Part shown: piece after piece, positions 11,084 to 42,224 of the stretch
Layout of the letters: each line of letters starts with the position of its first letter
Numbering within the stretch: the stretch's first letter is position 1
Assembly: GCA_964370805.1 (NCBI GenBank)
Contig: CAYJKM010000006.1
Coordinates: 1-42,250, forward strand
Origin: an uncultured Alphaproteobacteria bacterium
GTDB taxonomy: Bacteria > Electryoneota > RPQS01
Length of the DNA stretch: 42,250 nucleotides
Direction: 5' to 3'
Notes under the pieces: generated by a model
The model's database searches: none
Seen by the model: only the letters and a program-made list of their open reading frames with translations
Told to the model about the DNA's origin: nothing
Made by a program: the position numbers and the translations under genes

Positions 11084-11111
11084 CAAACGTCAGCGAAACA
11101 GAGAAAGCATC

Positions 11112-16597: not shown

Positions 16598-17020
16598 ATG
16601 TTGAAAGCATTTCGCACCAAGAAGGGCCGCAAGGGTTTCACGCTGATTGAACTTCTGGTCGTGATCGTGATTATCGGTATTCTGGCTGCGGTGGCCGTGC
16701 CTCGGTTTATGGGCGCTCAGGATCGTGCCCGCATCGGCGCGGCGCGCGCTGACGTGGATCAGTTCCGTCAGGCGCTGGGTATGTATGAAATCGATTATGC
16801 GGATTATCCGGCGGCCATGACACTGGCGAACGCCACGGCGACGCTGGTGGATCCGCAGGGCAATCCATACATGTCACTGCCGTCGGGCGCCAATTTTGCC
16901 GTCTTCACCTACACGTATGACGGCGCGGCCTCACCGACGTCCTACACCATTGACGTCGAGTGCCTGGACAATGCCGGCACGACCCTGACCGCATCACCGG
17001 ACGGAGTGGTTCAGAACTAA
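16598..17020 (+). CDS. pilA: Major type IV pilin (GspG-like sequence)
   Basis: Class III signal KG|FTLIELLVVIVIIGILAAVAVP; own promoter, GGAGG RBS and terminator; follows pilSR. Confidence 0.85.
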   Translation: MLKAFRTKKGRKGFTLIELLVVIVIIGILAAVAVPRFMGAQDRARIGAARADVDQFRQALGMYEIDYADYPAAMTLANATATLVDPQGNPYMSLPSGANFAVFTYTYDGAASPTSYTIDVECLDNAGTTLTASPDGVVQN

Positions 17021-21600: not shown

Positions 21601-24600
21601 TCAGCATGATGGCCAATTCAGTCTTGCAGGCGATGCCGGCGAATGGCACTTCGACAACTGACGTGAGTGTTGAGCTGCGGTTTGCCTCAAGCCTGGTGGC
21701 GATTTCCGGAGCCACAGTGCAATTCGGTTCGAGCTTGGGGAGTGTGCCCGCATCGGCAGTGACCGATTCCTCCGGTGTCGCTCGTGTGACGTTTACCGCC
21801 GGGACGGAAGTCGGCGTGGCGACGGTGATTGCGCGATTTGGCAACCTCTTAACCGATACGCTTTCTATTGACTTGTTTGCACCTGCTGCGAACATGCTGA
21901 GCATGGAGGCGGTGAATGCGACGCTGTTAGCTGACGGCGTCAACAGCACAATTCTGACGTCAATGGTGACGGATCAGATGGGCGCTCCGGTCAACGGAGC
22001 TGAGGTTGCGTGGACGCTGAATGGTGCGGGCTCATTGGCCAGTGCTGTGACGCTGACTGACGCCTCAGGAATGGCTGTAAATGTCTACACGGCGCCGGCG
22101 TCAAGCACGGATCAATCGAGTTCAATCCAGGCCACGGCCGGTGCAGGCTCGGACGAGATCAATGTGCAGACGTTAGGTGTGACGCTCAGTTTGAGTGTGG
22201 ATGATAATTTGCTGCCGGCAAACGGTCTCTCGATGACGCAGGTGCGCGCACAGCTTCGCGAAACCACAAGCATGGTGGCGATTCAGAACGCCGTCGTGAA
22301 CTTCGGGACGTCATTGGGTTCCGTAGCAGGAACCGTTTTGACGGATGAGGCGGGCATGGCTGTGGCGGACTTCACGACCGGCATGGAAGCCGGAACGGCC
22401 ACTATCGTCAGCCTGTACGGAAACACACTCAGCGATACCACGACGCTGCAAATGTACGTGCCGTCCGCTTCCAGTATTTCGTTGAGCCCGAGCGAGTCGA
22501 GCATTCGCGCGGATGGAGTTGCGACGATCTTCGTCACGGCAATGGTGCTGGACGAGGCCGGCGTGCCGTTGGGTCTGGCGCCGGTATCATGGGCGGTTGA
22601 AGCGGGAACGATTCAGTTTGCGCAGACAGCCACGAGTTCGGTCGGTTCGGCGACAATGACGTATCAGAGCGCGGCGTCGATGACCGATAATCCCGTGGAT
22701 ATCTCGATTACATGCGGAACCGTGACTCAGTCCACGACCGTGCTGGCAAGAGGCGTTACGGTGGACATCACGGCGGTGCCGAATATCGTGATCGCGGACG
22801 GGAATTCCACGTCGCAGATTCAGGCACATGTTTATGAGACCACGACCAACATCGCCGTCAGCGGCGAGGACGTCAGTTTCGGCACAACGCTGGGCACAAT
22901 TCCCAATTATACTACGACAAATTCGTCCGGACTGGCAGTGGTCTTGTTGACGTCCTCAACGGAAACCGGCACGGCGAATGTCACCGCAACCGTCGGCGCA
23001 GGACTCATGGATCAAACGCAAGTGACGTTTGCGCCGTCCACGCCGACTACGCTTTCGCTGACGGCGTCGCCGACGATTCTACTTGCTGACAATGTCTCCA
23101 CGTCCACATTGACGGCCGTGGTAACGGATCAGAATGGCAACCCCGTTCCTAACGGGACGCAGGTACGATTCAGTATTCCGCCGCAAAGCGGCTCGCTGGA
23201 AAACCTGCGCACGACGACTGCCGGCGTAGCAACCAACGTTTTGACGTCCAGTTCGACACCGGACACACTGACGATTGTCGCGTGGGCTGAGTCAAACTCT
23301 GAAGCGCGCGACAGCGTCACAGTTGTGTACATTGTCGGGCCGCCGTCGGTCGTGCAGTTGTCGGCGCAGAGCGATACTCTGCAGGCGAACGGAATCGCTG
23401 TGGATTCGATCACGGCGCACGTCACGGACGCGGTCGGCCATGCCTTGTCGAACGTGGAGGTGCTGTTCACGACGACCGTGGGCAACATTACCTCCAGTCG
23501 CGTGACGAACTCCAGCGGTGATGCCCGCGTGGCCTTCACGTCAGCACAAACAGGCACAGCTCTGATTACGGCAAACGCGTCGGGCGCACTTGGCTACTAC
23601 ACGGTTTACCTGATTCCGGGTGATCCCAACAGCATTCAGATGGAGTACTTCCCGAGTTCGGTCGGCGTGCGCGGCAGCGGTCGAAATGAGACATTGCTCA
23701 TTACCGCGACAGTTCGAGATGCGAACAACAATCCGGTCATTGACGGAACTCCGGTCTACTTCAATATCAACAATTCGCCGGGCGGTGGAGACTTCCTGTC
23801 CTCGTACGGCGCCATTCCGACGATCAACGGTCAGGCAAGCGTGTCCTACAACAGCGGCACGGTGTCAGGCAGCGTGCGCATCCGCGCGATCTGCGACGAC
23901 ATCACGGCCGTTTCGACGGAGATCTTGATTTACGCGGGGCCGCCGTACATTGAAGACATATCGGATGGGTGCTTGTCGAGCCACATGTCGCTGGCATCAT
24001 CGCCGTGCAACATGTTTGGAATGGACTTTGTCGGAGACTCGGTGATGCTGGTCGCACTGGTTGGCGACCGCTACAACAACCCGGTGACGCCCGGAACGGC
24101 CGTGTACTTCACGACGTCGGGCGGTGTGGTCACAACGGCGACGGGTTATACGGATTCCACCGGCTTTGCCCGAGTCACTCTGTATTCAGGTAATCCGCTG
24201 CCCACGATAGACCGCTGGTACAATACCTTGTCCGATCCCAACATGGGTGGCGCGATCCTTTGCACGTTCCCGCCGACGCAGCCGGGTGTGGCCAAGGTTT
24301 TGGCGACGTCCGCCGGTGTGGACGCCAACGGCGACAGCGTGATCGTGTGGTCGAGCACCGAAGTTATCTTCAACTATCGTGCGCCGGTACTGGCCATTCG
24401 CGAAGCAAGTGTTAATGGAGATCCGGATGAGCGCGAGTTGTTCATCGGCGAGAATGCGTTGATCACCATTGCGACATACGACCCCGACTACTGGCCGTTA
24501 GTTTACGGATCGACGCTGACGTTTTCGGCCAGCAAGGGAAATGTTTATCCCGGAACGATCACGATTGGCTGCCCCGGCGACACGACGTACACGGTGAGCT

Positions 24601-24734
24601 TCTTCAATGATCTGACCCTGAACGATGACGACGCAGCGACGCCGGTGCTGATCAGCGTGGATACCCGTCAAGGCGACGCGTACGCGTTTACCGAGACATT
24701 TACGCTGCGCGCGGCGCTGCCGGGCGGCCCCTGA
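18693..24734 (+). CDS. Giant lipoprotein with invasin/intimin-like Ig (Big_1) repeats
   Basis: Lipobox-like LWFG|C; recurring (A/P)A(D/N)GxSx(T/S)xxxAxVxDxxGNPV...VxF...G motif about every 95 aa; Thr/Ser/Val-rich. Confidence 0.85.
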   Translation: MRRRFMMRVWLPACTLATMVLWFGCEQKGDISPTGSSRQVLTFIDTVTVDPMILAPGGTASVEARILSELNEPAVGEDVRFSVTRGSLAGAHADTTIRSDSLGRARTTYTAPADTGTVLVRTELLSMSELRTTSLLVSTTDSPGEGLLSVWSDFDSLYADNGTSYTRIYARLRNEQHNPVGGVDIHFSTTVGTITSPVITDVLTGTAVSTLVSSTEIGTAVVVARTGQTSDTVEVVFLTPAEASQIIVSTSVPQLTAGVDSAIVMARVFDMNSLPVVDNTLVFFSTTRGTLTALSARTTDGVAVTVLLASPSTGEAVITATTGNQVTGQASVQIVPGPVAAISVSADADTMYADNSSETTITANVVDNFGNGVAQGTPIAFSATGGTVLGSSTVGPNGQATTSFRAGLDIGQATIIASNLNIQGSVSIYLQGTPATSIALTVNPLELEANGTSQAQLRALVLDEHNQPVSNGTSVTFTSESGVISGGDGGPSSLQQRNHRKDTGAWASAIERSNVVVPVSSDSKYGLSSKHSPITSTYTTVTAAGYAVATLTSPTTAGGDEIGAAVGELSDEQPVNYVAGAPAMIEVTPQAQELPADGVSSTTVSCVVTDAFGNNVGSGVAVTASSTLGSLNPISGYTNNSGVFVTTLVSSRQRGMCAVVATVEGASGYGELQFVAPDVAGVVLGADQISILANGLSTAMLTAMAVDQYGLPVSGASANWQVSAGPGSLLPLSSVTDTLGMVRALFYSGASEIDADQNVTVTIESHSDMRMIRQLGVSMAAWVDDEQLPADGNSTTPVNVQVRETTSGVAIPEATVRFAVNNGSIPQTAVTDASGVAVANYESSEVPGAVEINCLYGDTLRAQAALYLTDTAADTVIAAVAQNELTADGVSSTLVTALVFNEGMDVVPNTPVTFEVDGAGSFFPAIVYTNENGIAISTYQTAALTQDEEVTLNVSIERSNVESQVMLRGVSMMANSVLQAMPANGTSTTDVSVELRFASSLVAISGATVQFGSSLGSVPASAVTDSSGVARVTFTAGTEVGVATVIARFGNLLTDTLSIDLFAPAANMLSMEAVNATLLADGVNSTILTSMVTDQMGAPVNGAEVAWTLNGAGSLASAVTLTDASGMAVNVYTAPASSTDQSSSIQATAGAGSDEINVQTLGVTLSLSVDDNLLPANGLSMTQVRAQLRETTSMVAIQNAVVNFGTSLGSVAGTVLTDEAGMAVADFTTGMEAGTATIVSLYGNTLSDTTTLQMYVPSASSISLSPSESSIRADGVATIFVTAMVLDEAGVPLGLAPVSWAVEAGTIQFAQTATSSVGSATMTYQSAASMTDNPVDISITCGTVTQSTTVLARGVTVDITAVPNIVIADGNSTSQIQAHVYETTTNIAVSGEDVSFGTTLGTIPNYTTTNSSGLAVVLLTSSTETGTANVTATVGAGLMDQTQVTFAPSTPTTLSLTASPTILLADNVSTSTLTAVVTDQNGNPVPNGTQVRFSIPPQSGSLENLRTTTAGVATNVLTSSSTPDTLTIVAWAESNSEARDSVTVVYIVGPPSVVQLSAQSDTLQANGIAVDSITAHVTDAVGHALSNVEVLFTTTVGNITSSRVTNSSGDARVAFTSAQTGTALITANASGALGYYTVYLIPGDPNSIQMEYFPSSVGVRGSGRNETLLITATVRDANNNPVIDGTPVYFNINNSPGGGDFLSSYGAIPTINGQASVSYNSGTVSGSVRIRAICDDITAVSTEILIYAGPPYIEDISDGCLSSHMSLASSPCNMFGMDFVGDSVMLVALVGDRYNNPVTPGTAVYFTTSGGVVTTATGYTDSTGFARVTLYSGNPLPTIDRWYNTLSDPNMGGAILCTFPPTQPGVAKVLATSAGVDANGDSVIVWSSTEVIFNYRAPVLAIREASVNGDPDERELFIGENALITIATYDPDYWPLVYGSTLTFSASKGNVYPGTITIGCPGDTTYTVSFFNDLTLNDDDAATPVLISVDTRQGDAYAFTETFTLRAALPGGP

Positions 24735-29661: not shown

Positions 29662-30777
29662 ATGGAACTTCGTGGACTGCTCGACCTATTGTTTATCAAG
29701 AAAGCGTCAGATCTGCATTTGCGCACAGGCGCGTTGCCGGTACTGCGAATCAACGGCGAATTATTCGCCACGCGTCCGGAGAAAATTTCTACCGAGGAAA
29801 TGGATGCGTTCTTGAAAGAGATTCTGACGCCTGCCCAGCGGGATACGCTGGTGCGCGACAAAGAGCTTGATTTGGCGATCACCGTGCCGGGTTACGGGCG
29901 CACGCGCGTCAATGCATTTTACCAGCGCGGTACGGCCGCATTGGCCGTGCGCGCCATCAAGACGCAGATTCCCACGTTCGCCGAGCTCATGCTGCCGCCC
30001 GTCATGGAGCAGTTTTCGAACATGCGGCGCGGTCTGATCCTGTTCACGGGAGCGACCGGATCGGGGAAATCCACGACGATGGCGTCGCTGATCGAACATA
30101 TCAATAATCGCCGAAGCTGCAACATCTTGACCATTGAAGACCCGATTGAGTACATTTTTTCGAATAAGAAATCATTGATTGCGCAGCGCGAGGTGATGAT
30201 TGACACTCACACCTACTACGCCGCGTTGATTCACGCCTTGCGCGAGGATCCGGACATCATCATGGTCGGCGAGATCCGCGACGCGGACTCCATGATGATG
30301 GCGCTGCATGCGGCGGAAACCGGGCACCTCGTATTGACGTCGCTGCACACGTTGAACGCCGTCGAAGCGATCAACCGCATTATTTCGTTCTTCGCGCTCA
30401 ACGAGCAGGGACAGATCCGCTCGATCCTGGCGGGAACGGTACAGGCGATCGTATCACAGCGACTGGTCTCCCGCTCGGATAAGCCGGGGCGCGTGCCGCT
30501 CGTGGAATGTCTGGTCAACACGGCGGCCGTGCGCGAGTGTTTGTCGGATCCGGACAAGATGTACCTGTTGCAGAGCCTGATCGAGGACGGCAGCGCTCAC
30601 GGCATGCAGTCATTCGATCAATCGATTCTCACTCTTTACCGCAGCAATACGATCTCGTACGAAACGGCGATTGAGAGCGCGACGAATCCGAATGACCTCG
30701 AGATGGCAATTCGCGGGATCAGTTCGTCCGCCTCGAAACTAAACGCCTCGGCGGAGGCCGTGGGGCTTAGGGCATAG
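29662..30777 (+). CDS. pilU: Second retraction ATPase (PilT/PilU family)
   Basis: ASDLHL, GATGSGKST, EDPIE, REDPDIIMVGEIRD, ETGHL, GMQSFDQS; AIRNLIRE replaced by AVRECLSD. Confidence 0.8.
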   Translation: MELRGLLDLLFIKKASDLHLRTGALPVLRINGELFATRPEKISTEEMDAFLKEILTPAQRDTLVRDKELDLAITVPGYGRTRVNAFYQRGTAALAVRAIKTQIPTFAELMLPPVMEQFSNMRRGLILFTGATGSGKSTTMASLIEHINNRRSCNILTIEDPIEYIFSNKKSLIAQREVMIDTHTYYAALIHALREDPDIIMVGEIRDADSMMMALHAAETGHLVLTSLHTLNAVEAINRIISFFALNEQGQIRSILAGTVQAIVSQRLVSRSDKPGRVPLVECLVNTAAVRECLSDPDKMYLLQSLIEDGSAHGMQSFDQSILTLYRSNTISYETAIESATNPNDLEMAIRGISSSASKLNASAEAVGLRA

Positions 30778-31543: not shown

Positions 31544-32959
31544 ATGGCAGCTAACGCAAGATCACAAACGCTTTTGGACAGCTTGCTCGAGAAGCAGGTC
31601 ATTTCGCAGGAGCAGCACCAAACGGTGCAGAGTCTTCAGGCGGAGACCGGGCATTCAGCCGAACAAATTCTGATTGAATCCGGCACGCTGACCGAAGAAG
31701 ACTTGGCTGCGTTCATCAGCGACGCACTGCAGGTTCGCAGCCTGAAGTTGGAAGACATCGAAATTGATCGCGAGGCCGTTAAGCATGTCCCCGCAGCCGT
31801 GGCGCATCGTTTCCAACTCATACCCGTGCGGCGCAGCGGCAACGCGCTCGCCGTGGTATTTGCGAATCCGACCGATCCGGAAGCTATGCGGGCCCTGCAA
31901 GCGGTAACCGACTTCGAGATCATTCCATTTGTCGGACGGGCCGACGCGATCGAACACGCTGTGTTTCTGCATTACGGGGAAGCGCCGGCCGAAGTTGCGG
32001 CTCCGGACTCAGCAGTCTCGGCGTCGCGGGCTCAGCCGTTGATCGAGGATGATCGCATCAGCCATATGGGCAAAAGTATTCAGGTCAACCGGCAATGGTC
32101 GTTTGAGCAGATGGTATCGGATGCCGCCAACCAGTTCCCCGTCAGCGTAGCAAAGGCTGTGGCTGAACTGCTGCCGGAGACGGAATACAATCCGTTTCTG
32201 TGCTGGGGACAGGCGGGGTGCGGCAAGTCCCACTTGCTCCACGCCATCGCCAATCATTTGATCGCCCATGCGCCCCTGAAGCGCTTCATATTGACCAGCG
32301 GCCAGAAGTTCTGCGACAATCTGTTTGAAGCCATCCGCGACAAGAAGCTGAACCTGTTCCGCTATCTTTATCGCGAACTCGACGTGCTGATGATCGATGA
32401 CGCCGACGCGCTGTTGAGCAGGGATTGGGCGCAACAAGAATTAGTTGAGACCTTTCAATCGCTGCGCAAGCATGGCAAGCAATTCGTATTAGCGAGTCGC
32501 CAGAATCTGGCCGTTAACCCGCGCACGGTCGCTAAGCTCCGGGACGTGCTGGAGACGGGCGTGATCGCCGGCTTCGGCGAGTATTCGGTGGAAGCGAAAC
32601 TGGCAATGATCAGCCGCCAGAAGGGCGGGATCGAGCTGCCCTCGGAAATGCTCATTTACCTGGTGCGCCGCTGCGGCGACAGCGTGACCGATTTGCTGGG
32701 CGTGCTGCAGCAAGTCACGATGCTCGCCTTGCACGGCGAGCGCATCATCACGCAGGAAGCCGTGGATGACTTGATCCGGCTGTGTGGACACGATTTGGAA
32801 GGCGCCAGCCAGGATTTTCAGGCGGCCCTGACTGAAGCTCAGGTTGAAATGCCGGCTGATTCGCGACCGCCCGAGTCGGCCGAGACGACTGAAGACAAAC
32901 CATCTCAAAAGAGCAGGAACAGACAGCATGGTGAACAAGCCGCAAATCCTCATCGTTGA
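31544..32959 (+). CDS. PilB/GspE N-terminal (MshEN-like) domain fused to a DnaA-like AAA+ domain
   Basis: N-half parallels the PilB N-terminus (ISQEQ...VPAAVAHRFQLIPV...ANP). C-half: SFEQMV...NQF...AVAE...YNPF..WGQAGCGKSHLLHAIAN...YRELDVLMIDD...QQEL. Confidence 0.85.
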   Translation: MAANARSQTLLDSLLEKQVISQEQHQTVQSLQAETGHSAEQILIESGTLTEEDLAAFISDALQVRSLKLEDIEIDREAVKHVPAAVAHRFQLIPVRRSGNALAVVFANPTDPEAMRALQAVTDFEIIPFVGRADAIEHAVFLHYGEAPAEVAAPDSAVSASRAQPLIEDDRISHMGKSIQVNRQWSFEQMVSDAANQFPVSVAKAVAELLPETEYNPFLCWGQAGCGKSHLLHAIANHLIAHAPLKRFILTSGQKFCDNLFEAIRDKKLNLFRYLYRELDVLMIDDADALLSRDWAQQELVETFQSLRKHGKQFVLASRQNLAVNPRTVAKLRDVLETGVIAGFGEYSVEAKLAMISRQKGGIELPSEMLIYLVRRCGDSVTDLLGVLQQVTMLALHGERIITQEAVDDLIRLCGHDLEGASQDFQAALTEAQVEMPADSRPPESAETTEDKPSQKSRNRQHGEQAANPHR

Positions 32960-33308
32960 TGACGATCCGCGATATCTTGAATTGCTGCAATTCGCGTTAG
33001 AGAGCGAAGGGTTTCGCGTGCTGGCCGCCCGCAATCCGCGTCAAGTGCAGGCCCTGGCGGTCTCGTACCGTCCGGACATGATCATCTCGGACGTGGTGAT
33101 GCCGGAAATGGACGGCTTTGACGTTGCTGCCAACTTGCGCGCGGATGCGCGAACAGCGGATATCCCCGTGATCTTTCTAACCGCCCGCAGCCAGGAGAGC
33201 GACCGACTGGAGGGGCTGCGAGCGGGTGCGGTTCAATATATGACCAAGCCATTTTCGCCGGCCGCATTGGTTGACGCCGTGCGTTCGGTCATGAAGGAGG
33301 CATCGTGA
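32928..33308 (+). CDS. Single-domain response regulator (CheY/PilH-like)
   Basis: ILIVDDD, ISDVVMPEMDG, IPVIFLTA, YMTKPF. Confidence 0.9.
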   Translation: MVNKPQILIVDDDPRYLELLQFALESEGFRVLAARNPRQVQALAVSYRPDMIISDVVMPEMDGFDVAANLRADARTADIPVIFLTARSQESDRLEGLRAGAVQYMTKPFSPAALVDAVRSVMKEAS

Positions 33309-34480
33309 CCGTTTCGACAGCACCTGCGGCTGCCGCCGACCGTACGACTCGATCCGGTGATGGTTGGGGCGAGCTCGTTCACTCGTCGCGCGATATCATC
33401 TATCTCTTGCGGCCGGACGGCACCTACTTGGACGTCAACCAGCAGCTGACTCGAGTATTGCGGCGTCCCCGGGAGCATATCGTTGGCGCGCACTTTACGA
33501 CTCACCTGGAAAAGGAGCATGCGGCCGTCGCCGAGCGCGTACTGAAAGACCTCGTGCAGCGGCGCGCTCCGGAACGAACCACTCGGATGTTTCACCTTCC
33601 GGGCAATGAGCCGCAGCTTTTCGAGATCATCGAGACCCCGTTGATCCGGAACGGCGAAGTCTGGGCCATCGCCGGAGTCGGACGCGATATTTCGCAGGAA
33701 GCGGAATTGGAGCGCAAGCTCTGGGACACGGTGGAGACTCAGCGTTACTCACTGGACTTTGCCCTGCGCACGTCGCTGGGGCTGATCAAGGGCTACATTT
33801 ACACGCTCGGACAGAGTGAGACCCTGTCGGACGATCGGCGCATCCGCTACACGCGAATTATCGAGGACGAAATCGATCATCTGGCGAAGATTGTTGAGGA
33901 CATTCTGGATTTTCGCCGCATGGAAGTCGGGAATTACGAGTTCAACGAAGAGGTCGTACAGCTCTCCGATTGCGTGAACATGGTCATGCGGCAATTTGAA
34001 GACGAGGCTCATCGCCGCGAGATTGAAATCAGCGCGCAAATGCCGCAGAAGATGGACCCGCTGTACTTGTTTCCGGAAGCGGTCACGCGCGTGCTGGTGA
34101 ATCTCGTTCAGAATGCCATCCAACACACCCTGCACAGCGGGCGGATCGAACTGATCGTGGAAGACAACGACCTCTACGTCGATGTGATTGTCCGTGACAA
34201 CGGGATTGGCATCGCTGAGGACGAGCTGCCGTATATTTTCGAGAAATTCTACAAAGGCAAGAGCTCGGAAAGCGAAGCGGGTCAGGGAATTGGAATGGGA
34301 CTTGCTATTACGAAGACGCTGGTGGCGGCAATGGGGGGGAAGATCTGGGCGCAGAGCAAACCCGGCAAGGGGAGCGAATTTCGCGTGATGCTGCCGCGCC
34401 GCCTCTACCACAGTGATGCTACGCACGACGAAGGCTCTGATCTCGCCGCACTGTCGGCGGTCGGCGCAGAGACTTATTGA
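33305..34480 (+). CDS. Cytoplasmic PAS histidine-kinase-like protein lacking the phospho-His
   Basis: PAS (DGTYLDVN...GRDIS); DHp reads DFALRTSLGLIKGY; intact NLVQNA, DNGIG, IFEKF, GIGMGL. Confidence 0.85.
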   Translation: MTVSTAPAAAADRTTRSGDGWGELVHSSRDIIYLLRPDGTYLDVNQQLTRVLRRPREHIVGAHFTTHLEKEHAAVAERVLKDLVQRRAPERTTRMFHLPGNEPQLFEIIETPLIRNGEVWAIAGVGRDISQEAELERKLWDTVETQRYSLDFALRTSLGLIKGYIYTLGQSETLSDDRRIRYTRIIEDEIDHLAKIVEDILDFRRMEVGNYEFNEEVVQLSDCVNMVMRQFEDEAHRREIEISAQMPQKMDPLYLFPEAVTRVLVNLVQNAIQHTLHSGRIELIVEDNDLYVDVIVRDNGIGIAEDELPYIFEKFYKGKSSESEAGQGIGMGLAITKTLVAAMGGKIWAQSKPGKGSEFRVMLPRRLYHSDATHDEGSDLAALSAVGAETY

Positions 34481-34490
34481 GGGCACAGGC

Positions 34491-36212
34491 ATGATGAAGC
34501 GTCACAAGTTGGGAATTGGTTTGGACATCGGGAGCCGCTCGATTCAGCTCTCGGTCCTGCGTTCGGCCAAAAACGGTACGGTGCTGGAGCGGTTAGCCTC
34601 CAAGGAGCTGCCGCATGATACGATCGTGGAAGGCGCCGTGATGGATTCACAGGTCCTCTCGGAGGCAATCTCCTCGCTGCTGAAAGAGCACAAGCTGCAG
34701 GGCAAGGAGGCGGCGCTCTCGATCAGCGGCCGTCAGGTCATGATTAAGCGGATCGACACGGATGAGATGACGGATGACGAACTGGACTCCGCCATCATGT
34801 ACGAGGCGAAGAGCAATCTGCCCTTCGACATCAGCGAAGTGTCCTTGGATTACGCTCGCCTGCCGCAGGAGCTGGATTCCGGTCGCATGGAGGTCTTGCT
34901 GGTGGCGGCGAAGAACGAGATCATCCTGGATGCGACGGAACCCGTGCGTTGGGCCGGCGGCCGTCCCGGGCTGTTGGAAGCCGAGCCGTTTGCCCTGCAA
35001 GCGGCGCTGCATGAAGCCGGTTATCTCGACAGTGACATGCCCGTTGCCGCTCTGCAAATCGGTTTTCAATCGACAGATGTTACGCTCTTTCAGAATGGAC
35101 AGTTTGAGACGAACCGCAACCTGCACATCGGCGGGAAGACATATATTGAAGAGTTGATCCGGGATTTGGGCATCACCTTCGAGCGGGCCGCCGGCATTCT
35201 GGCTCGCCCGCACCGGACGGAAGAAGAGCAGCATGCGTTAGATCGGATTGCTCAGCGGGTCGCCGACAAGCTGTCGGACTTGATTGAGCGTGCCATGCCG
35301 GAGTATTTCGGCGACACGGCTGACCGTCACGTGGGTACGGTCGCGCTGTGCGGCGGGGGCGCACACTTGCCGATGCTCGAAATTGCGCTGCGCCAAAAGC
35401 TCGGCGTCCAGGTGGAGATCGTCAATCCGTTTCGCCATCTGGAGATCAACAGCCACAATGTGAATCCGGCGCACACCGAGTGCGGACCGGAATTCACAAC
35501 CTCGGTCGGGCTGGCGTTGCGCGCGCTCGGTGATATCCATACCGGCTTCGATCTACTGTCGCCGTCGCACAAGAAGACGGCAGGCGGCGTCAACAATCCC
35601 GGTTCCGGCGCGGTCGCGGCGATTCTGACGTTCTCGGCGATGCTGCTGGGAATGGTCATGCTGCATATCACACAGGAGAACAAGCTTGCCGCATTGCAGG
35701 GTCGGCTCGACAATCTGAAAAAGGAAACCGACCTCTATCGCGACAAGATCGCGTTAGTCGAAGACCTGACGCAGAAACGCGCGGACATCGCCGCCCGCAT
35801 TGACGTCATCGCAAGTCTGGACAAGAATCGCTTCGCGCGCGTGAAGATGGCGCAGCTGCTGAATCGAACGCTGCCGGAATTGACCTGGCTGTCGAGCGTG
35901 TCCGAAGTGAGCACGAGTCGCGGGCCCGGATTCAACGTCTCAGGGGTGACCAGCTCCAATCTCAAGGTCAGCCAGTTCATGACCAATTTACTGCGGGATC
36001 AGGAGGTGCGCGGAGTTGATCTGTTGGTTTCGGAACAGGGCGAGATGGCCGAGGTGGACATCACGCAGTTCACGCTCCAAGTCGCCTATCCGGTCCTGGG
36101 GATCGTGGCTCCGCCGCCGCTGCGGCCGGCCAACGAACTTGCGCAGGGGGCGAAAGCCATTCGCGAGAAGCGCAGAGCGCAGTCTCAAATGATGAAAGAA
36201 TCCTCAAAATAG
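34491..36212 (+). CDS. pilM: PilM-PilN fusion protein
   Basis: GLDIGS...LCGGGA...VGLALR (PilM) continues in frame into FDLLSP, a TM helix, coiled coil and LPELTWL...FMTNL (PilN). Confidence 0.88.
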   Translation: MMKRHKLGIGLDIGSRSIQLSVLRSAKNGTVLERLASKELPHDTIVEGAVMDSQVLSEAISSLLKEHKLQGKEAALSISGRQVMIKRIDTDEMTDDELDSAIMYEAKSNLPFDISEVSLDYARLPQELDSGRMEVLLVAAKNEIILDATEPVRWAGGRPGLLEAEPFALQAALHEAGYLDSDMPVAALQIGFQSTDVTLFQNGQFETNRNLHIGGKTYIEELIRDLGITFERAAGILARPHRTEEEQHALDRIAQRVADKLSDLIERAMPEYFGDTADRHVGTVALCGGGAHLPMLEIALRQKLGVQVEIVNPFRHLEINSHNVNPAHTECGPEFTTSVGLALRALGDIHTGFDLLSPSHKKTAGGVNNPGSGAVAAILTFSAMLLGMVMLHITQENKLAALQGRLDNLKKETDLYRDKIALVEDLTQKRADIAARIDVIASLDKNRFARVKMAQLLNRTLPELTWLSSVSEVSTSRGPGFNVSGVTSSNLKVSQFMTNLLRDQEVRGVDLLVSEQGEMAEVDITQFTLQVAYPVLGIVAPPPLRPANELAQGAKAIREKRRAQSQMMKESSK

Positions 36213-36239
36213 ATCTCCGGAAGATCGGTGGAGACACAA

Positions 36240-36668
36240 ATGAAAGCGCATTCAATTTACTTCTTGTTGGCCGGCTTCGTTTTGCTGACAACGGCCGGCT
36301 GTGATGAAGGGATCGATGATTGGAACAGTTCAGCGACCATCTCGGGCTACGTTTACACCGATCCTTCGCACACGCAGGGAATCCCCGGTGTGCAGGTGAT
36401 TCTCGAATCGGATCCCAGCGCCGACAATCCGTATGAAGGGCCCGATCGCTGGACGTCCACGAATGGCCAGGGCTATTTCCAAGGCTCCGTCTTTCTGGGA
36501 CGCAATGCGGAGACCGGCAGCTATCACTATGTCGCGGACATGAGCGTCGCCTACTTCTACGAGAACAAGACGTTTCGCTGGAGCGGCGGAATCACGGTCG
36601 GTCCCGGTTCCGACTTCACTCTGCCGCCGGTGGATACGACCATGTTCATATCCATGGGCGGGCAATAG
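36240..36668 (+). CDS. Small beta-rich lipoprotein of unknown function
   Basis: TTAG|C lipobox-like site; ATISGYVY...GIPGVQV...TSTNGQGYF (prealbumin/Cna-like pattern); GGAG RBS. Confidence 0.7.
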   Translation: MKAHSIYFLLAGFVLLTTAGCDEGIDDWNSSATISGYVYTDPSHTQGIPGVQVILESDPSADNPYEGPDRWTSTNGQGYFQGSVFLGRNAETGSYHYVADMSVAYFYENKTFRWSGGITVGPGSDFTLPPVDTTMFISMGGQ

Positions 36669-36676
36669 GAGCACTT

Positions 36677-37348
36677 ATGCGCCTGAATCTTCGAAAACCC
36701 TCCACGCAAAAGTGGATTCTCAGTGTCGGCTTGGCGTTTACAATGCTCTATGGCTATGTCCAGTTCGTTTACGTTCCGCGCCAGGAACACGCGCAGAAAC
36801 TGACGGACGACATCAAGACGGAAATGGAGATGCTGGCCAAAGGGAAGCGGATTGCGGCCAATTTCCAGACCGTGCAGGATGACTATGGCCGGCTGCTGCA
36901 CAGCTGGGATATCGCACACGAACTGCTGCCGACGTCGCGCGAAATGGAAGATCTGTTGCGCAACGTCGCCATGAAGGGCCAGCAGCACTCGGTGGACTTC
37001 CTCCTGTTCAAGCCGATGGAGCCGGTCGAGCAGCCGTATTATTGGGAGAATCCGATCCAGATCAAGACGCTTTCGAACTATCACAATCTGGGGCGGTTCA
37101 TGTCCGACGTGGCGTCACTGGATCGCATCGTGAACATCAACAACGTGAAGCTCTCGGCCTTTCGGCCGAATCGGGGCCGCAGCCCCAATACGGTCGAGGC
37201 GGACTTTGTAGCCACGATCTATATCTTCAAAGAACTCGGTTCGCCGGCGGAAATCGAAACACCGCCGGAAGACAATTCCAAGAAGCCGCACGGTAAAGCC
37301 GGAGGCAACAGAGCCGCGCGCGGCAAGTCGGGAAAGGGTGAAACATGA
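36677..37348 (+). CDS. pilO: Type IVa pilus alignment protein PilO
   Basis: N-terminal TM and coiled coil, LLPTSREMEDLL, YHNLGRFMSDVASLDRIVNI. Confidence 0.9.
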   Translation: MRLNLRKPSTQKWILSVGLAFTMLYGYVQFVYVPRQEHAQKLTDDIKTEMEMLAKGKRIAANFQTVQDDYGRLLHSWDIAHELLPTSREMEDLLRNVAMKGQQHSVDFLLFKPMEPVEQPYYWENPIQIKTLSNYHNLGRFMSDVASLDRIVNINNVKLSAFRPNRGRSPNTVEADFVATIYIFKELGSPAEIETPPEDNSKKPHGKAGGNRAARGKSGKGET

Positions 37349-37917
37349 TGTTTCAAGTGATTGCAATCATACTCATGTTGCTCGTGGCGAGTCCGGCCAT
37401 GTCTGATGAGGAGTCCAACGGCGCCAACGCGACCGCGGAATCGAATCCGGTGACGGAGCCGTCGGGGGCGCGCGATGAGCAGGACAATGAAACGCTTTCG
37501 ACGGAACTGCGCGGCATCGATTCACTCGGAGTCATGCCCAAGGTCGTCGCTACACCCTATCAAGGCGGGACGCGGCGCGTGGAACTGGAAAGCACGGTGT
37601 TCCGTCGCGAGCAGCCGTTTGTTTACAATTCCGCCGCTCAGCGCGATCCATTTCGAGCGTTGATTGCCGATGAAAAGAAGGAAGGCGAAATTCAAACCGA
37701 CCTCTTGATCGTCGAGGGCGCGGTCTTGACCGGAATCGTGTGGGCGGAAGGCCACTATCTGGCAATGATCCGCGACAAGGACAGCCGCACGTTTTTCCTG
37801 CGCGAGGGCGATCCCGTCTACTCGGGGAGCGTCACCTCAGTCACGGAATCCCACGTCATGTTTGAGATCTCCACGTTCGGAGATTATCAACGCGTAACCC
37901 TGAAAGTAAACGGCTGA
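37345..37917 (+). CDS. pilP: PilP-like protein
   Basis: YNSxxxRDPF, LTGIVW...AMI, position between pilO and pilQ. Confidence 0.75.
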   Translation: MMFQVIAIILMLLVASPAMSDEESNGANATAESNPVTEPSGARDEQDNETLSTELRGIDSLGVMPKVVATPYQGGTRRVELESTVFRREQPFVYNSAAQRDPFRALIADEKKEGEIQTDLLIVEGAVLTGIVWAEGHYLAMIRDKDSRTFFLREGDPVYSGSVTSVTESHVMFEISTFGDYQRVTLKVNG

Positions 37918-37970
37918 TGCTTAACCATAAGATACACGAACCATTCCCGAACCGGGGAAAGGTGCTGATC

Positions 37971-39203
37971 ATGAAAACGTTGCTTGCCGGCCTCATACTG
38001 ATCTTGGTGGGGCTGAACACCGTGCCCGCGGCCGCACAGGTGGCACCCTATCGCGGATCCTCCGGCCACATCTCGATGAATGTGGAGGAGGCCGATATTC
38101 GCGCCGTATTGCGCAGCATTTCCGAATTCTCGGGGATGAATATCGTCGCCGGTTCTGAAGTGAAGGGACCCGTAACGGTGCTGCTCCATGACGTACCATG
38201 GCGGGAAGCGCTGGAGAGTATTCTGCGCATGAACGACTTCGTCTCCATTGAGGAGCACGGAGTCATCCGCGTCGCCACTCACAAGGACTATGAGCAGGCT
38301 GCAAAACTGCAAGCGCTTGTGACGGCGATCTATGAAGTCAAATACGCGCGGGCTGAGAAACTTCAGGCCGTGGTGAGCAAACTCCTGAGCGAGCGCGGCA
38401 AAGCACAGGCGGACATTCGGGCGAATGCCCTGATCATCACCGACATTCCACGCGTGGTGACGATGATGGACTCGGTGGTGGCGCGTCTGGACAGGCCGAC
38501 GGCGCAGGTTTTGATCGAGTCCAAGATCGTCGAGGTGGATGCAAGCTCAAGTCGCGAATTGGGTGTGGACTGGAGTCTTGGAAATCTTGCCAATCCGCTC
38601 ACCAATACTCGGGCGGGCGCCAATGTCGATCTCGGAGTGCGTGATCCGGCCGGAAGCTTCAGCTTCGGGCGCCTGCAAAACGGCGTCGCCATCGAAGCTC
38701 AACTGAGCGCGCTGGAAGAGAACAACAAAGCCAATATCCTGTCACAACCCTCCGTGCTCATCAACGACAATGAAGAGGCGATTGTGATGTCGGGGAAGCG
38801 GATTCCGATCAACGTGCTCGATCAGGCCGGCAATCTGATCACGGAATTCTATGATGTTGCCGTCAAGCTCACCGTTACGCCGCACATCAATCCCAAAAAC
38901 GAGGTCCTGATGTCGCTGAAGCCGGAAGTGTCGGAACTGTCCGGTGAAGCGACGGTGTCTGGCGGCGTGATTATCCTCACATCCGAAGTTTCGACGACGC
39001 TGCTGGTCAAAGACGGCGAGACGGTGGTCATTGGCGGCGTCATTCGTTCGAAGGACGGACTCCTCGAGCGTCGTGTGCCGCTGTTGCACGCCATACCGCT
39101 CTTTGGACGCTTATTCTCCTACTCTGCCAAGACGTTTGACAAGACGGAAATCCTGGTCTTTGTCACGCCACACGTGATACCGATCAGCATGGCCTCGAAG
39201 TAG
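37971..39203 (+). CDS. pilQ: Secretin PilQ (compact)
   Basis: ISMNVEEADIRAVL, DVPWREAL, QVLIESKIVE, LTVTPHI, DGETVVIGG, PLLHAIPLFGRLF, VFVTPHVI. Confidence 0.93.
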   Translation: MKTLLAGLILILVGLNTVPAAAQVAPYRGSSGHISMNVEEADIRAVLRSISEFSGMNIVAGSEVKGPVTVLLHDVPWREALESILRMNDFVSIEEHGVIRVATHKDYEQAAKLQALVTAIYEVKYARAEKLQAVVSKLLSERGKAQADIRANALIITDIPRVVTMMDSVVARLDRPTAQVLIESKIVEVDASSSRELGVDWSLGNLANPLTNTRAGANVDLGVRDPAGSFSFGRLQNGVAIEAQLSALEENNKANILSQPSVLINDNEEAIVMSGKRIPINVLDQAGNLITEFYDVAVKLTVTPHINPKNEVLMSLKPEVSELSGEATVSGGVIILTSEVSTTLLVKDGETVVIGGVIRSKDGLLERRVPLLHAIPLFGRLFSYSAKTFDKTEILVFVTPHVIPISMASK

Positions 39204-39270: not shown

Positions 39271-39295
39271 AGAAAGCCTCCGTTGGAGGCTTTCT
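39271..39295. terminator. Terminator closing the pilus operon
   Basis: AGAAAGCCTCC-GTT-GGAGGCTTTCT. Confidence 0.7.
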
Positions 39296-39470: not shown

Positions 39471-42224
39471 ATGATTCGGTGGTCGCTTTTCTTACTGCTT
39501 TTCACAGTCACGTCCCTTCCCGTCATCGGCGGGCCTGCGGATCAATGGACGGAGAGTGAGTATCTCCCCGGTCGTTTGATCGTGGACTTCTCTCAGTCCA
39601 TCAATCCACGTGTTCCGGCGTTGGATCAGAATGGGATCGTGCAGCTTGGAATCCCCTCGCTGGATAACATCTTTCAGGAATTTGAAGTGACGAAAGCTGT
39701 CCGGCTTGTCCCGGACGGTATCATTGCCAAACTGAAAACACCGTCGGACTTGTATCGCACGTACGTGCTTGTGTTCCGTCCGGAGTATTCCGTTCTGGAT
39801 GCCTTGGATCGTTTGGCGGGCGACGCCAACGTGGTCAGCGTTCAGCCGGACATTCTTTACAGGATTGACCGCATTCCCAACGATGCTTTCTGGAACAGCA
39901 TGTGGGACAAGCAGATCATGGGCGTGGACGTCGCGTGGGAATTCTCGACTGGCGATCCAAGTATCATCTGTGCCGGAATTGACACCGGCGTGGATTGGAA
40001 CCATCCCGATATCGGCATGATGGACACCAGCAATGCATCCCTCGGCTGGCGGCTCTGGGTGAATCCGGATGAAGACTTGGATCAGGACGGGATTCCGTAC
40101 GTCTGGACCGATTATCCGGGCGATCCTGACGATCTGAACGGCCTTGACGACGGTGAAAACGGCTACGTTGACGATTTCCTCGGCTGGGATTTCATCAACA
40201 ACATTGGCGGCTGCTATCCTGGCGAAGATTGCGACAACATGGACAACGACATGTTTGGTTTGGAATCGCACGGTACGCACGTCGGCGGACTCATGGCCGC
40301 CCACGGAAACAATGGAATTGGGGTGGCCGGCGGAATGTGGGACGGCCGGCTGATGGCGCTTCGTGCCGGATATCTGAGCAATGATAATCCTCCGCAGGGA
40401 TACATGCCGGAGAGTGCCACAGCCCCGGCGATTTATTACGCCGCCGCCAATGGAGCCAGAGTGCTTAACATGTCTTACGGCGGCGGATCGTTTTCACCGC
40501 AGGGCAACAACGCCTGCCAGTCGGCTTGGAACCAGGGTTGCCTGTTATTCGCGGCTTCGGGAAACAACTACGGTAACATTAATCCTCACTACCCGGCAGC
40601 TTATGACAATGTGATCGCCGTAAATTCGATTGATAACGGCGACATCATCTCCGACTTTTCGAATTACGGAACGTGGACGGATCTAAATGCGCCGGGCGGC
40701 AGTCCGGGCGTGTGGAGCACGATCATCAATGGCTACACCGCTTATTTCGGCACGTCGATGGCCAGCCCGAACGCGGCCGGCGTCGGCGCCTTGCTGTGGA
40801 GTCTTTTTCCTGAGTACACGAACGTGCAGATTCGAGATTGGCTTTTTGACTCCGCGGAAGATATTACGGACGAGAACCCTGGTATTCCACCGAACTACCT
40901 TGGCCACGGCCGCGTGAGTGCCGAAAATGCGGTCGCCTCGGTGTTTCCATTGTTGACGGTAGAGAGTCAGTCGCTCACGGATGCGTCGGGCGATAATGAT
41001 CATCGCCTCGAAGCCGGGGAAACAGGACAACTCGTTCTGACGGTTGCGAACGCGGAAGGCTGGACTGAAGGTGAAGATCTCACCGCCACCGTCTCCACGA
41101 CGAATGGCAGTTTGACGATTACGAACGGCACGTTCTCACTGGGGGATATTCTGCCCGGCAGTAGCGCGAACAACGCCGCAAATCCGGTGAATATCACGGC
41201 CGCGGCGGACATCTACGCGGCGTTCTGGGCGGAACTCGCGGTCGTCTTCTCCTCACCAAGCGGTTTCCAACAGACTGTGTTCACGAACCTCCGTGTCGGA
41301 CGCGGCCATGTCTTGATCGTCGATGACGACGGTGCGAACAACTACGAGACGTACTACGAGACAACGATCGAACAATTCACGCTGACTCCCGATGTCTGGT
41401 CCACGTCGCTTGACGGCGCGATGCCGGCCAGCGAACTGGAGCATTATTCGGCAATTATTTGGGAGTGCGGGAACGAAGCCACGAACACGCTCACGACCGA
41501 AGATCAAGCCAACCTGACCAATTTCTTGAATGCGGGCGGTGATCTGTTGCTGGTCGGTCAGAACATCACGGAAGACATCGGCGCATCGGCGTTTCACACA
41601 GACGTCTTGCATGCTCAGAACGAAGGTGTGGCAGGCAACCGTCAGCTCACCGGGATTGCCGGGAACGTCATTTCGGACGGCCTCGAATTGTTATTGCTTG
41701 GCGGAGCCTGTGCCGGAAATGGCCAACTCAGCCCATCCCGCATCCTGCCTCTAACCGGCGCCGTGGCAATGTTTGATTACACCGATGGCGGCATCGGCGC
41801 TGTTCAGTACGAAGGCGCGGGCAAAGTGGCCTACTTCGCCTTTGCGCTGGAAGCGGCGTGCGGCATGGCCGAGACGGACCATCACAACGTTGTTATTCGT
41901 GAAGTGCTGGAGTGGTTTGGAATCAATGATGCGCCCGAGCCGCCTGCTGGAGAGCTTCCTACTACGGTGGCGTTGCACGGCAACTATCCTAATCCCTTCA
42001 ATCCGACCACCACGATCTCCTTTGATCTGTCCACGCGTACCGCCGTCGAACTCAAGGTGTATGACGTGACCGGTCGTGAAGTAGCGACGCTGGTGAGCAC
42101 AAGCTTGAATGCAGGAACTCATCACGTGCAGTTTGACGGTTCTAATCTCGCCAGCGGCGTTTATCTCGTCCGCTTGAATGCCGGAAACACGAATCTGTCC
42201 TCAAAGATGGTCCTGATGAAGTGA
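39471..42224 (+). CDS. Secreted S8 (subtilisin-like) serine protease with T9SS type-A-like C-terminal sorting domain
   Basis: Signal peptide; triad GIDTG, HGTHVGG, GTSMASP; oxyanion AASGN; tail NYPNPFNP...VYDVTGREV...LASGVYLVRL...KMVLMK. Confidence 0.93.
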   Translation: MIRWSLFLLLFTVTSLPVIGGPADQWTESEYLPGRLIVDFSQSINPRVPALDQNGIVQLGIPSLDNIFQEFEVTKAVRLVPDGIIAKLKTPSDLYRTYVLVFRPEYSVLDALDRLAGDANVVSVQPDILYRIDRIPNDAFWNSMWDKQIMGVDVAWEFSTGDPSIICAGIDTGVDWNHPDIGMMDTSNASLGWRLWVNPDEDLDQDGIPYVWTDYPGDPDDLNGLDDGENGYVDDFLGWDFINNIGGCYPGEDCDNMDNDMFGLESHGTHVGGLMAAHGNNGIGVAGGMWDGRLMALRAGYLSNDNPPQGYMPESATAPAIYYAAANGARVLNMSYGGGSFSPQGNNACQSAWNQGCLLFAASGNNYGNINPHYPAAYDNVIAVNSIDNGDIISDFSNYGTWTDLNAPGGSPGVWSTIINGYTAYFGTSMASPNAAGVGALLWSLFPEYTNVQIRDWLFDSAEDITDENPGIPPNYLGHGRVSAENAVASVFPLLTVESQSLTDASGDNDHRLEAGETGQLVLTVANAEGWTEGEDLTATVSTTNGSLTITNGTFSLGDILPGSSANNAANPVNITAAADIYAAFWAELAVVFSSPSGFQQTVFTNLRVGRGHVLIVDDDGANNYETYYETTIEQFTLTPDVWSTSLDGAMPASELEHYSAIIWECGNEATNTLTTEDQANLTNFLNAGGDLLLVGQNITEDIGASAFHTDVLHAQNEGVAGNRQLTGIAGNVISDGLELLLLGGACAGNGQLSPSRILPLTGAVAMFDYTDGGIGAVQYEGAGKVAYFAFALEAACGMAETDHHNVVIREVLEWFGINDAPEPPAGELPTTVALHGNYPNPFNPTTTISFDLSTRTAVELKVYDVTGREVATLVSTSLNAGTHHVQFDGSNLASGVYLVRLNAGNTNLSSKMVLMK

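Follow-up and report, generated by a model that had tools for sequence, protein, structure and literature searches.

Introduction

The contact between PilM and PilN is normally non-covalent, with a 1:1 ratio of the two partners, and PilN carries an N-terminal docking motif of the INLLP type. One single-chain version of this contact is man-made: 5EOU, the engineered P. aeruginosa PilM:PilN1-12 chimera (McCallum et al. 2016), has the N-terminal peptide of PilN joined directly to the C-terminus of PilM. Natural pilMN fusions have also been published, for C. difficile, for most pilMNOPQ clusters of Campylobacterota and for Pelagibacterales, with pilM and pilN forming one gene in an otherwise ordinary pilus cluster. 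A comparable layout is found in GspL proteins (PulL, EpsL, XcpY), which consist of an actin-like cytoplasmic domain, one transmembrane (TM) helix and a ferredoxin-like periplasmic domain. Finally, a long PilM-like protein exists in Akkermansia (Amuc_1101, family NF045709), where it has been called just a predicted FtsA-like protein (PMC5332112).

Here, we describe a fused pilMN gene in a stretch of DNA of 42,250 nucleotides, the whole of which is referred to below as the window. With a probability of roughly 0.85, we consider its product to be a genuine single-chain component of a type IVa pilus machine, belonging to the inner-membrane alignment subcomplex. The window protein is a naturally occurring equivalent, fixed long ago, of the PilM:PilN chimera that was engineered for crystallography. 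It differs from 5EOU in that the man-made chain ends after 12 PilN residues, whereas PilMN goes on to a TM helix and a periplasmic domain (identity 25%). Compared with the fusions of C. difficile, Campylobacterota and Pelagibacterales, it belongs to another lineage, and its homologues are named Calditrichota, KSB1 or simply "bacterium".

Results

Reading frame and domains of PilMN

The pilMN gene is a single uninterrupted ORF of 573 codons, which starts with an ATG at 34491 and ends with a stop codon at 36210-36212. An in-frame GTG at 34413 was considered as a start and is unlikely, because the orthologues have their initial M(A/M/V)KR where 34491 aligns. The gene and the parts of its product are as follows:

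34491..36212, + strand: pilMN (PilM fused to PilN), 573 aa, with known full-length orthologues
34518..35525, + strand: PilM actin-like cytoplasmic domain, residues 10-345 (Pfam PF11104, TIGR01175, structure match)
35526..35546, + strand: connector LGDIHTG, the seven residues 346-352 leading from the last PilM helix to the docking motif (alignment; pLDDT of 86 for block 341-350)
35547..35564, + strand: FDLLSP, residues 353-358, PilN-type N-terminal docking motif (alignment, junction strings, overlay on 5eou)
35604..35669, + strand: single TM helix, about residues 372-393 (hydropathy scan; model helix from residue 375)
35670..35870, + strand: long helix in the periplasm, a probable coiled coil spanning about residues 394-460 (DSSP helix 375-460; domain-model helix 2-66)
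35853..36083, + strand: PilN periplasmic beta-beta-alpha-beta-beta domain, residues 455-531 (Pfam PF05137; fold matches)
36135..36206, + strand: conserved C-terminal basic helix, residues 549-572, outside the PilN Pfam match (alignment, models)

The preliminary description of this DNA, made from the sequence alone, had proposed a natural fusion in which no stop follows the end of PilM (VGLALR), the frame running on into FDLLSP at about 35547 and from there into a TM helix and the PilN periplasmic domain. Our analysis agrees with it on each of these points: VGLALR corresponds to residues 339-344 (35505-35522), FDLLSP stands exactly at 35547-35564, the TM helix (372-393) and the Pfam PilN match (455-531) come after it, the frame is continuous to 36210-36212, and both domains lie in one ORF whose orthologues are also devoid of a stop at the junction. 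The matches to PilM_2 and PilN share one frame of the 573-aa protein, which is far beyond chance.

Both halves were recognized by profiles. The PilM_2 profile (PF11104) matched residues 10-345 with an E value of 6.7e-52 and 176.9 bits, against a cutoff of 27, and was covered from position 1 to 339 out of 340; TIGR01175 matched residues 6-345 with 201.8 bits (cutoff 133), which places the protein among PilM members. The PilN profile (PF05137) gave 39.6 bits over residues 455-531 (E 5.5e-10), above its gathering cutoff of 22.8. The sole strongly hydrophobic 19-residue stretch of PilMN is found at about residues 372-393 (Kyte-Doolittle mean 2.18), and FDLLSP (353-358) occupies the place of an INLLP-type motif, in the short cytoplasmic segment ahead of this single TM helix. 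The GspL profile PF05134 (T2SSL) did not match PilMN at E <= 0.01. The Amuc_1101 model NF045709, which has 608 positions, aligned with residues 6-503, that is, past the junction and the TM helix, and PilMN scored 160.5 bits with it, against an equivalog cutoff of 650, so that it is not a member of this family.

Pilus gene context

The window contains the following pilus-related features:

8465-10159, + strand: pilB (TIGR02538, equivalog, 719 bits; cutoff 675.65)
11055-12224, + strand: pilT (TIGR01420, 478.7 bits; cutoff 319.1)
12250-13455, + strand: pilC (PilC models)
16598..17020, + strand: type IV prepilin gene (KGFTLIELLVV..., motif scan)
29662..30777, + strand: second PilT-family ATPase (TIGR01420, 430.1 bits; cutoff 319.1)
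32844-33308, + strand: response regulator, directly upstream together with the kinase, syntenic within the family
33305-34480, + strand: PAS histidine kinase, directly upstream of pilMN, syntenic within the family
36228..36668, + strand: predicted lipoprotein of 146 aa, between pilMN and pilO
36677..37348, + strand: pilO (Pfam PF04350, E 1.3e-28)
37345..37917, + strand: pilP-like gene, weak (Pfam PF04351, E 0.0026, under the cutoff), of conserved position
37917..39203, + strand: pilQ secretin (TIGR02515, 298.5 bits, cutoff 284.35; Secretin, Secretin_N and N0 domains)
39271..39295, + strand: terminator-like hairpin 3' of pilQ, with an 11-bp stem (consensus match only)

PilB, two PilT, PilC, a prepilin, PilMN, PilO, a PilP-like protein and PilQ are thus gathered in the window, as expected of a type IVa pilus, and the neighbours of pilMN do not form a type II secretion cluster, which would have GspC, GspM, GspD and GspE and lack PilT. 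Judged from its gene content, the locus is a type IVa pilus system and not a type II secretion system. The preliminary description had also placed the protein in a retractile type IVa setting; a type IVa system with PilT-family ATPases is supported, and its retraction is presumed.

Ten distinct relatives share the gene order pilMN-lipoprotein-pilO-pilP-pilQ in synteny. In these 10 loci, the 146-aa lipoprotein shows 41-70% identity and always stands between pilMN and pilO. Neither Pfam nor NCBIfam assigned it to a family at threshold (CarboxypepD_reg, with E 0.034, fell under the cutoff), and the ESM Atlas returned for it just unnamed "hypothetical protein" clusters with a CarboxypepD_reg share of 15%.

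Distribution and age of the fusion

An orthologue was detected at E <= 1e-40 in 29 of the 79 genomes of the phylum, all of them in one order. One family accounts for the window's own genome and 22 of 23 others and a second family for 6/6, while the seven other families have none (0/49). No junction stop was found in any of these 29 genomes: 27 full rows cross the junction without a stop, and two partial rows complete the set. In one of the latter (G013), the gene is divided between two contigs and the piece carrying residues 252-573 spans the junction; in the other (G006), a frameshift lies within the PilM part, ahead of GLALR and away from the junction, so MAGs can contain broken or mis-assembled copies of this gene. 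Beyond the phylum scan, 65 of the 120 homologues listed are full-length fusions of 545-593 aa with both PF11104 and PF05137, at 79-29% identity and from several data sources. A search for fused orthologues, which had been put forward as a check together with read support, is thereby answered.

Within the order, the orthologues go down to 36-44% identity. In a PilM-domain tree, from which the published PilMN of C. difficile, Campylobacterota and Pelagibacterales were left out, the window protein belongs to a separate clade whose 19 rows are all fused; other fused forms are scattered among unfused ones. The deep all-fused clade takes in candidate phyla such as WOR-3/Hydrothermae. On the evidence of this tree, the fused state has arisen several times and is uniform in one deep clade. 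Being fixed across one order and placed inside a deeper all-fused clade, the fusion is old, as had been supposed.

Regarding read support at 35520-35570, Logan contigs from three of four runs (X1, X2, X4) bridge this segment with 0 differences and 0 gaps, and the remaining run (X3) has a coverage hole, with no contig over 35481-35665. As the depth is 2-4x and the four runs come from one study, which is possibly the source of the window, these contigs are independent support only in a weak sense.

Conservation of the docking motif

Relative to INLLP, FDLLSP has F in place of I and D in place of N. The preliminary description had rightly seen it as a variant of the PilN peptide, and had taken its divergence for drift and thereby for a sign of an old fusion. 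The alignment of 27 fused orthologues does not support drift, and the age of the fusion has to be argued from its distribution instead. The family consensus at the junction is GFNLL, which is a canonical-type PilN motif of the form [IVF]NLL(P); F353 is kept in 26/27 sequences, N354 in 24/27 and L355 in all. The change from N to D occurs only in three of them, namely the window protein and the two sequences nearest to it; Asp is thus the residue of this genus, and may bear on docking. Fused representatives of other lineages carry [IVFA]NLLP 6-12 residues past GLALR. Since the motif is conserved as GFNLL across the orthologues, it looks maintained rather than relaxed, and the predicted model sets it on PilM.

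Structure models

The full-length AlphaFold model has a mean pLDDT of 81.8; the values around the junction are 86 (residues 341-350) and 79 (residues 351-360). The linker residues 361-376 are predicted to be disordered (pLDDT 43-46). The top structural match of this model is 5eou_B, with Z 38.7 and an rmsd of 2.8 over 346 residues; model residues 6..358 align on chain residues 10..366, and the alignment reaches through the PilN1-12 peptide, in contrast to PilM-only chains, which align just up to model residue 347-348. By their aligned ranges, residues 353-358 of the predicted model (pLDDT about 79) overlay the PilN1-12 segment of 5eou_B, a docked pose that may partly be recall, given that the training of AlphaFold included 5EOU and 2YCH-type entries. 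Foldseek likewise gave TM-scores of 0.87-0.88 with 5eou (rmsd 2.9-3.2 A), versus 0.78-0.80 (4.2-4.6 A) with peptide-free PilM. The two-lobed actin/FtsA-like fold of PilM is further supported by matches to 2ych_A (Z 34.7), to PilM of 3jc8 (Z 33.9) and to FtsA chains (Z 27-29). GspL structures are absent among the best 50 matches of the full-length model; these rows are filled by actin-fold ATPases, so the absence says nothing about GspL.

The separately modelled periplasmic domain (pLDDT 80.9) consists of a helix at 2-66 followed by elements in the order E-E-H-E-E, which corresponds to the coiled coil and ferredoxin-like domain of PilN. It matched XcpY (Z 10.6), PilO 2rjz (9.9), EpsL (9.7), PulL (8.6) and Thermus PilN 4bhq (7.2).

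Discussion

In the reading that we prefer, FDLLSP (FNLL in the family) very probably turns back to occupy the groove of PilM in its own chain, as in the PilM:PilN1-12 chimera and as the model predicts. After the motif, a disordered stretch of about 13 residues would lead to the TM helix, the long periplasmic helix and the ferredoxin-like PilN domain, and this domain presumably pairs with PilO, encoded two genes downstream, and is linked via PilP to the PilQ secretin. The fusion seems to have arisen in a simple way, the stop codon of pilM and the short spacer having been lost. Its effect would be to make permanent a 1:1 contact that is normally non-covalent, the parts being unchanged. We infer one predicted polypeptide of 63 kDa in vivo, docking in cis and pairing with PilO in the periplasm.

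Just seven residues separate the motif from the last helix of PilM, and a PilMN protomer might hand its FDLL peptide to a neighbouring one, a swapped arrangement that is invisible to a monomer model. With so short a connector and the peptide in the neighbour, the fusion would drive or stabilise a cytoplasmic PilM ring and would not simply tether PilM to PilN. We regard such trans docking as unlikely: the monomer model sets residues 353-358 on the same-chain PilN1-12 site of 5eou_B, and where the clusters of the phylum are unfused, the tail of PilM (2-9 residues past GLA[LQ]R) and the lead of PilN (5-7 residues before INL) add up to about the same spacing. It could also be imagined that the fusion is merely genetic and that one ORF yields two proteins, either by internal initiation near the junction, where an in-frame TTG (Leu343) is located slightly ahead of the motif, or by proteolysis of the linker, whose predicted disorder could make it accessible to proteases. 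However, zero in-frame ATG or GTG codons occur in segment 340-372, and the frame is continuous, with a constant short spacing, down to 36% identity, which argues for selection on the covalent link; we therefore hold the production of two proteins to be very improbable.

That a lost stop or a frameshift has artificially joined separate pilM and pilN genes could be suspected in a MAG that is 65.64% complete, with contigs of low depth (2-4x) and one relative bearing a frameshift in the gene. But the same frame recurs in independent genomes of two families (27 full and 2 partial rows of the 29) and in the 65 full-length fused homologues among the 120 listed, and contigs of 3 runs span the junction with zero differences. 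The fusion is conserved, and an assembly or sequencing artefact is effectively refuted. Hardly more credible is an origin of PilMN in type II secretion, as an orthologue of GspL. The three-part single-chain layout is the same, and the top fold match of the periplasmic domain is a GspL, XcpY; yet XcpY, PilO and EpsL differ by less than 1 in their Z scores, the cutoffs of both TIGR01175 and Pfam PilN are exceeded, and the genes around it encode PilO, PilP, PilQ, PilB, PilC, two PilT and a pilin. PilMN is not a member of the GspL family, as the T2SSL profile of Pfam did not match it at E <= 0.01. Unlike GspL, it keeps a PilN docking motif and a PilM-type profile, and is encoded beside PilT, PilO, PilP and PilQ instead of GspC and GspM. 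The "GspL-like single chain" of the preliminary description is consequently sound for the architecture and wrong if understood as family membership; PilMN may work like a GspL by analogy of architecture only.

To return to PilMN as a single-chain pilus subunit, our results suggest that a pilus machine equipped with PilT can tolerate PilM and PilN being permanently linked 1:1. Extension or retraction may then not need PilM and PilN to come apart in cycles. Moreover, repeated fusion bears on the evolution of GspL-type single chains from PilM plus PilN. On the practical side, proteins of 570 aa annotated only as "PilM" have their PilN function hidden, which could lead to the mistaken conclusion of a "missing pilN". 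A pilus specialist will find nothing surprising in these implications. The novelty implied at the outset for the fusion was too high, given that pilus clusters with a fused pilMN gene had been published before; as the fusion has been described in other bacteria, the present one is a solid but fairly ordinary finding.

Of the order's 24 other genomes, 23 also have a second, unfused PilM of about 28% identity. It is tempting, if rather doubtful, to see in the covalent link a means of insulation between two pilus machines per cell, with the 146-aa lipoprotein as an extra, undescribed component. If this were true, the tethered docking peptide would stop PilM and PilN from swapping partners between two machines in one cell. 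In the one case examined, the unfused PilM is part of a complete pilMNOPQ cluster, and the PilN encoded there starts with F-T-I-N-L-N-K-G-E-G.

A fused PilM-PilN chain in a type IVa pilus locus

Our results support the notion that pilMN is a real gene, an anciently fixed single chain joining PilM and PilN in a type IVa pilus machine. The 573-codon frame lies in a locus with the following features:

about 16598-17020: prepilin gene (KGFTLIELLVV)
18693-24734 (+): giant adhesin-like protein of 2013 aa, containing 18 stretches of Big_1/Invasin_D3 repeats; the pilin gene and a sigma-54 response regulator lie immediately upstream
31544-32959 (+): 471-aa protein whose N-terminal part is a PilB-like MshEN domain of the c-di-GMP-binding type, joined to a DnaA/Hda-like AAA+ ATPase with Hda lid
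34491-36212 (+): pilMN
36228-36668 (+): 146-aa predicted lipoprotein, between pilMN and pilO (signal peptide ending ...LLTTAGC, Asp after the Cys)
downstream of pilMN: PilO, a weak PilP-like gene and the PilQ secretin (TIGR02515, 298.5 bits vs 284.35), then a terminator-like hairpin after pilQ
39471-42224 (+): S8 subtilase of 917 aa that carries a C-terminal sorting domain for type IX secretion, directly past the pilQ terminator

PilB (TIGR02538, 719 bits, above cutoff), PilC and two ATPases of the PilT family (478.7 and 430.1 bits vs a cutoff of 319.1) are also encoded in the window. The preliminary description spoke of a retractile system; with PilB, PilT, PilC, prepilin, PilO and PilQ the type IVa machine stands, and retraction is suggested by the PilT genes solely.

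As that description had it, the frame continues past the end of PilM without a stop. Indeed, no stop codon occurs in the pilMN frame between 35400 and 35760, and the Pfam domains PilM_2 (residues 10-345, E 6.7e-52) and PilN (455-531, E 5.5e-10) share this frame, both above their gathering scores; NCBIfam TIGR01175 (pilM) scores 201.8 bits vs a cutoff of 133. The PilM end VGLALR occupies residues 339-344 and FDLLSP, found where it had been placed, residues 353-358 (35547-35564). The only strongly hydrophobic stretch (about 372-393) follows, and then the periplasmic PilN domain. The layout is therefore GspL-like, as had been proposed, but the protein is not a member of the GspL family, because Pfam T2SSL gave no match to it at E <= 0.01. 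A conserved basic helix (residues 549-572, 36135-36206 (+), consensus L..GA.AIRE.R.A) closes the chain after a Pro-rich spacer and the PilN domain, outside the Pfam PilN match; it is missing from the shortest orthologues, P0069 and P0070.

Fused orthologues in relatives

The continuous frame recurs in homologous proteins and in the genomes of relatives, so that an assembly or sequencing artefact is effectively excluded. Among 120 homologues listed by a large protein search, 65 are full-length fusions of 545-593 aa with both PF11104 and PF05137 (79% down to 29% identity), and the others are fragments or unfused PilM of about 350 aa (31-36% identity). The sources name these homologous proteins as Calditrichota, Calditrichaeota or candidate division KSB1. 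A first genome scan gave matches in all 31 genomes; across the phylum, 29 of 79 genomes have an orthologue at E <= 1e-40. These belong to a single order: 22 of 23 genomes of the family to which the window's genome belongs, that genome itself, and all six of a second family. At the same threshold it is absent from 49 genomes in seven other families.

In the phylum scan, 27 orthologue rows run through the junction stop-free. One further orthologue (genome G013) is interrupted by contig ends, its piece 252-573 spanning the junction. Another (genome G006) has a frameshift within the PilM part, upstream of the junction and distinct from a stop and restart there; its 234-aa ORF starts MGLALRAFGEPHTGFNLLP. 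At this locus (L017, G006:C16:47500-50500) the frameshift lies in the C-terminal part of PilM, a 421-aa ORF drifts out of frame and the second ORF opens MGLALRAF...; the alternatives are a faulty assembly and a pseudogene. Contigs from three of the four public runs span 35520-35570 and show zero differences, although at 2-4x depth and from one study, possibly the source of the window, they add little.

Natural fused pilMN genes in pilus clusters are a kind already in print, and we found no printed description of one in this order in the literature. Two papers count 'PilMN', as a single protein, among the accessory membrane proteins of C. difficile (PMC6143707, PMC7057214), and a figure legend mentions 'the PilM-PilN fusion protein' of Pelagibacterales (bioRxiv 10.64898/2026.10.07.757358). 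The 608-position model of the NCBIfam Amuc_1101 family also aligns across the junction, with a score far under cutoff.

Origin and age of the fusion

In unfused pairs of the same phylum, PilM ends 2-9 residues past GLA[LQ]R; 7 to about 90 nt of spacer follow, and the PilN that comes next has 5-7 residues ahead of its INL motif. The seven-residue connector of the fused form matches this spacing approximately, so loss of the pilM stop and merging of the spacer into the connector would suffice to produce the fusion.

When a profile built from 27 aligned fused sequences was run against 1.84 billion cluster representatives, it retrieved 42,044 proteins at E <= 0.001; of 267 collected proteins, scored with PilM and PilN profiles taken from the same alignment, 92 carry both parts. 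We built a FastTree phylogeny of 152 PilM domains from the representatives P0121-P0267, eight family members and six named unfused proteins, excluding nine rows with under 300 profile positions covered. The clade that holds the window protein has 19 rows and is entirely fused (local support 99, from FastTree only); for one of its member clusters the sources give the name candidate division WOR-3 or Hydrothermae. The ten other fused rows are dispersed among 123 unfused ones, a class that includes eight long proteins unmatched by the PilN profile and possibly divergent fusions. The tree requires at least 10 state changes, 6 of them imposed by well-supported branches, vs 26.8 in shuffles, with the caveat that metagenomic gene calls may err.

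An old fusion had been proposed from drift of the docking peptide. The age holds on phylogenetic grounds; the drift does not, the motif being kept as FNLL. In an alignment of 27 homologues from the 65 full-length fusions, picked to span the identity range, the consensus past the PilM end is VGLALRALGDxHPGFNLL, with F353 in 26, N354 in 24 and L355 invariant. Asp replaces Asn in three of these sequences only, the window protein and the two relatives nearest to it (at 79% and 76% identity), and FDLL is confined to these three among 94 proteins of at least 500 aa whose junction was inspected. Fused representatives of other lineages carry VNLLP, ANLLP, INLL or VNLMPWR, 6-12 residues past GLALR. Thus, the docking motif is conserved rather than drifting.

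Predicted docking in cis

The retained motif is predicted to sit on the chain's own PilM domain. An AlphaFold2 model of the full length, made on the 27-sequence alignment, has a mean pLDDT of 81.8 and pTM of 0.61, with mostly 86-94 in the PilM domain, 86 at 341-350, 79 at 351-360 and 43-46 at 361-380. In it, residues 375-460 form a helix, 465-532 a beta-beta-alpha-beta-beta unit (pLDDT 85-91) and 549-572 the C-terminal helix. PilM structures rank first in Foldseek against the PDB, with the best TM-score and rmsd for 5EOU ('PilM:PilN1-12 bound to ATP'; 0.87-0.88, 2.9-3.2 A) vs 0.78-0.80 and 4.2-4.6 A for peptide-free entries. By PDB sequence search, 5eou is one chain named 'PilM, PilN'. In a second structural aligner the top match is 5eou_B (Z 38.7, rmsd 2.8, 346 aligned), with model residues 6-358 matched to chain residues 10-366; the alignments of PilM-only chains all end at residue 347-348. 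Because the 5eou_B alignment passes through FDLLSP and the chimera's PilN1-12 segment, we take the model, judged by aligned ranges and pLDDT and made by a predictor trained on such entries, as support for docking in cis.

A separate periplasmic model (residues 395-573, 10-sequence alignment A2, pLDDT 80.9) was searched against 48,161 PDB representatives. Its best rows were the XcpY periplasmic domain (Z 10.6), Myxococcus PilO in 3jc8 (10.0), PilO 2rjz (9.9), EpsL (9.7), the PulL C-terminal domain (8.6), EpsM (7.5) and Thermus PilN 4bhq (7.2). The modelled domain has the common PilN/PilO/GspL/GspM fold, inside which these near-tied scores do not discriminate.

A second machine and neighbouring genes

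Two points deserve a specialist's attention: an unfused paralogous machine alongside the fused one, and a conserved gene for a lipoprotein that separates pilMN from pilO. A second, weaker PilM match (25-30% identity, mostly frames of 361-376 aa) occurs in 23 of 24 other genomes of the order; it was not found in genome G016, nor in the window's own 65.64%-complete genome. The only such match opened, in the same genus (L013, G001:C3:462000-468500), lies in a complete unfused pilM-pilN-pilO-pilP-like-pilQ cluster with a 359-aa pilM product and a 208-aa pilN product starting MIKQFTINLNKGEG... Outgroup families of the phylum carry the INLN-type unfused form alone, so the fused system is an order-specific second machine. 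With both machines in one genome, we conjecture that the covalent link might keep their PilM and PilN from swapping partners.

The 146-aa lipoprotein belongs to no known family (its sole domain hint, CarboxypepD_reg, is sub-threshold at E 0.034). Its position is kept in loci of 10 distinct relatives from both families at 41-70% identity, and it could be an additional part of the alignment subcomplex. The 471-aa MshEN-AAA+ protein is a candidate for an odd regulator of the pilus locus; it is syntenic in a relative's locus (L001, 64% identity), between a DUF4388 protein and a response regulator, and is also found in another (L002, 45% identity). The S8 subtilase is likewise syntenic in L001, at 64% identity.
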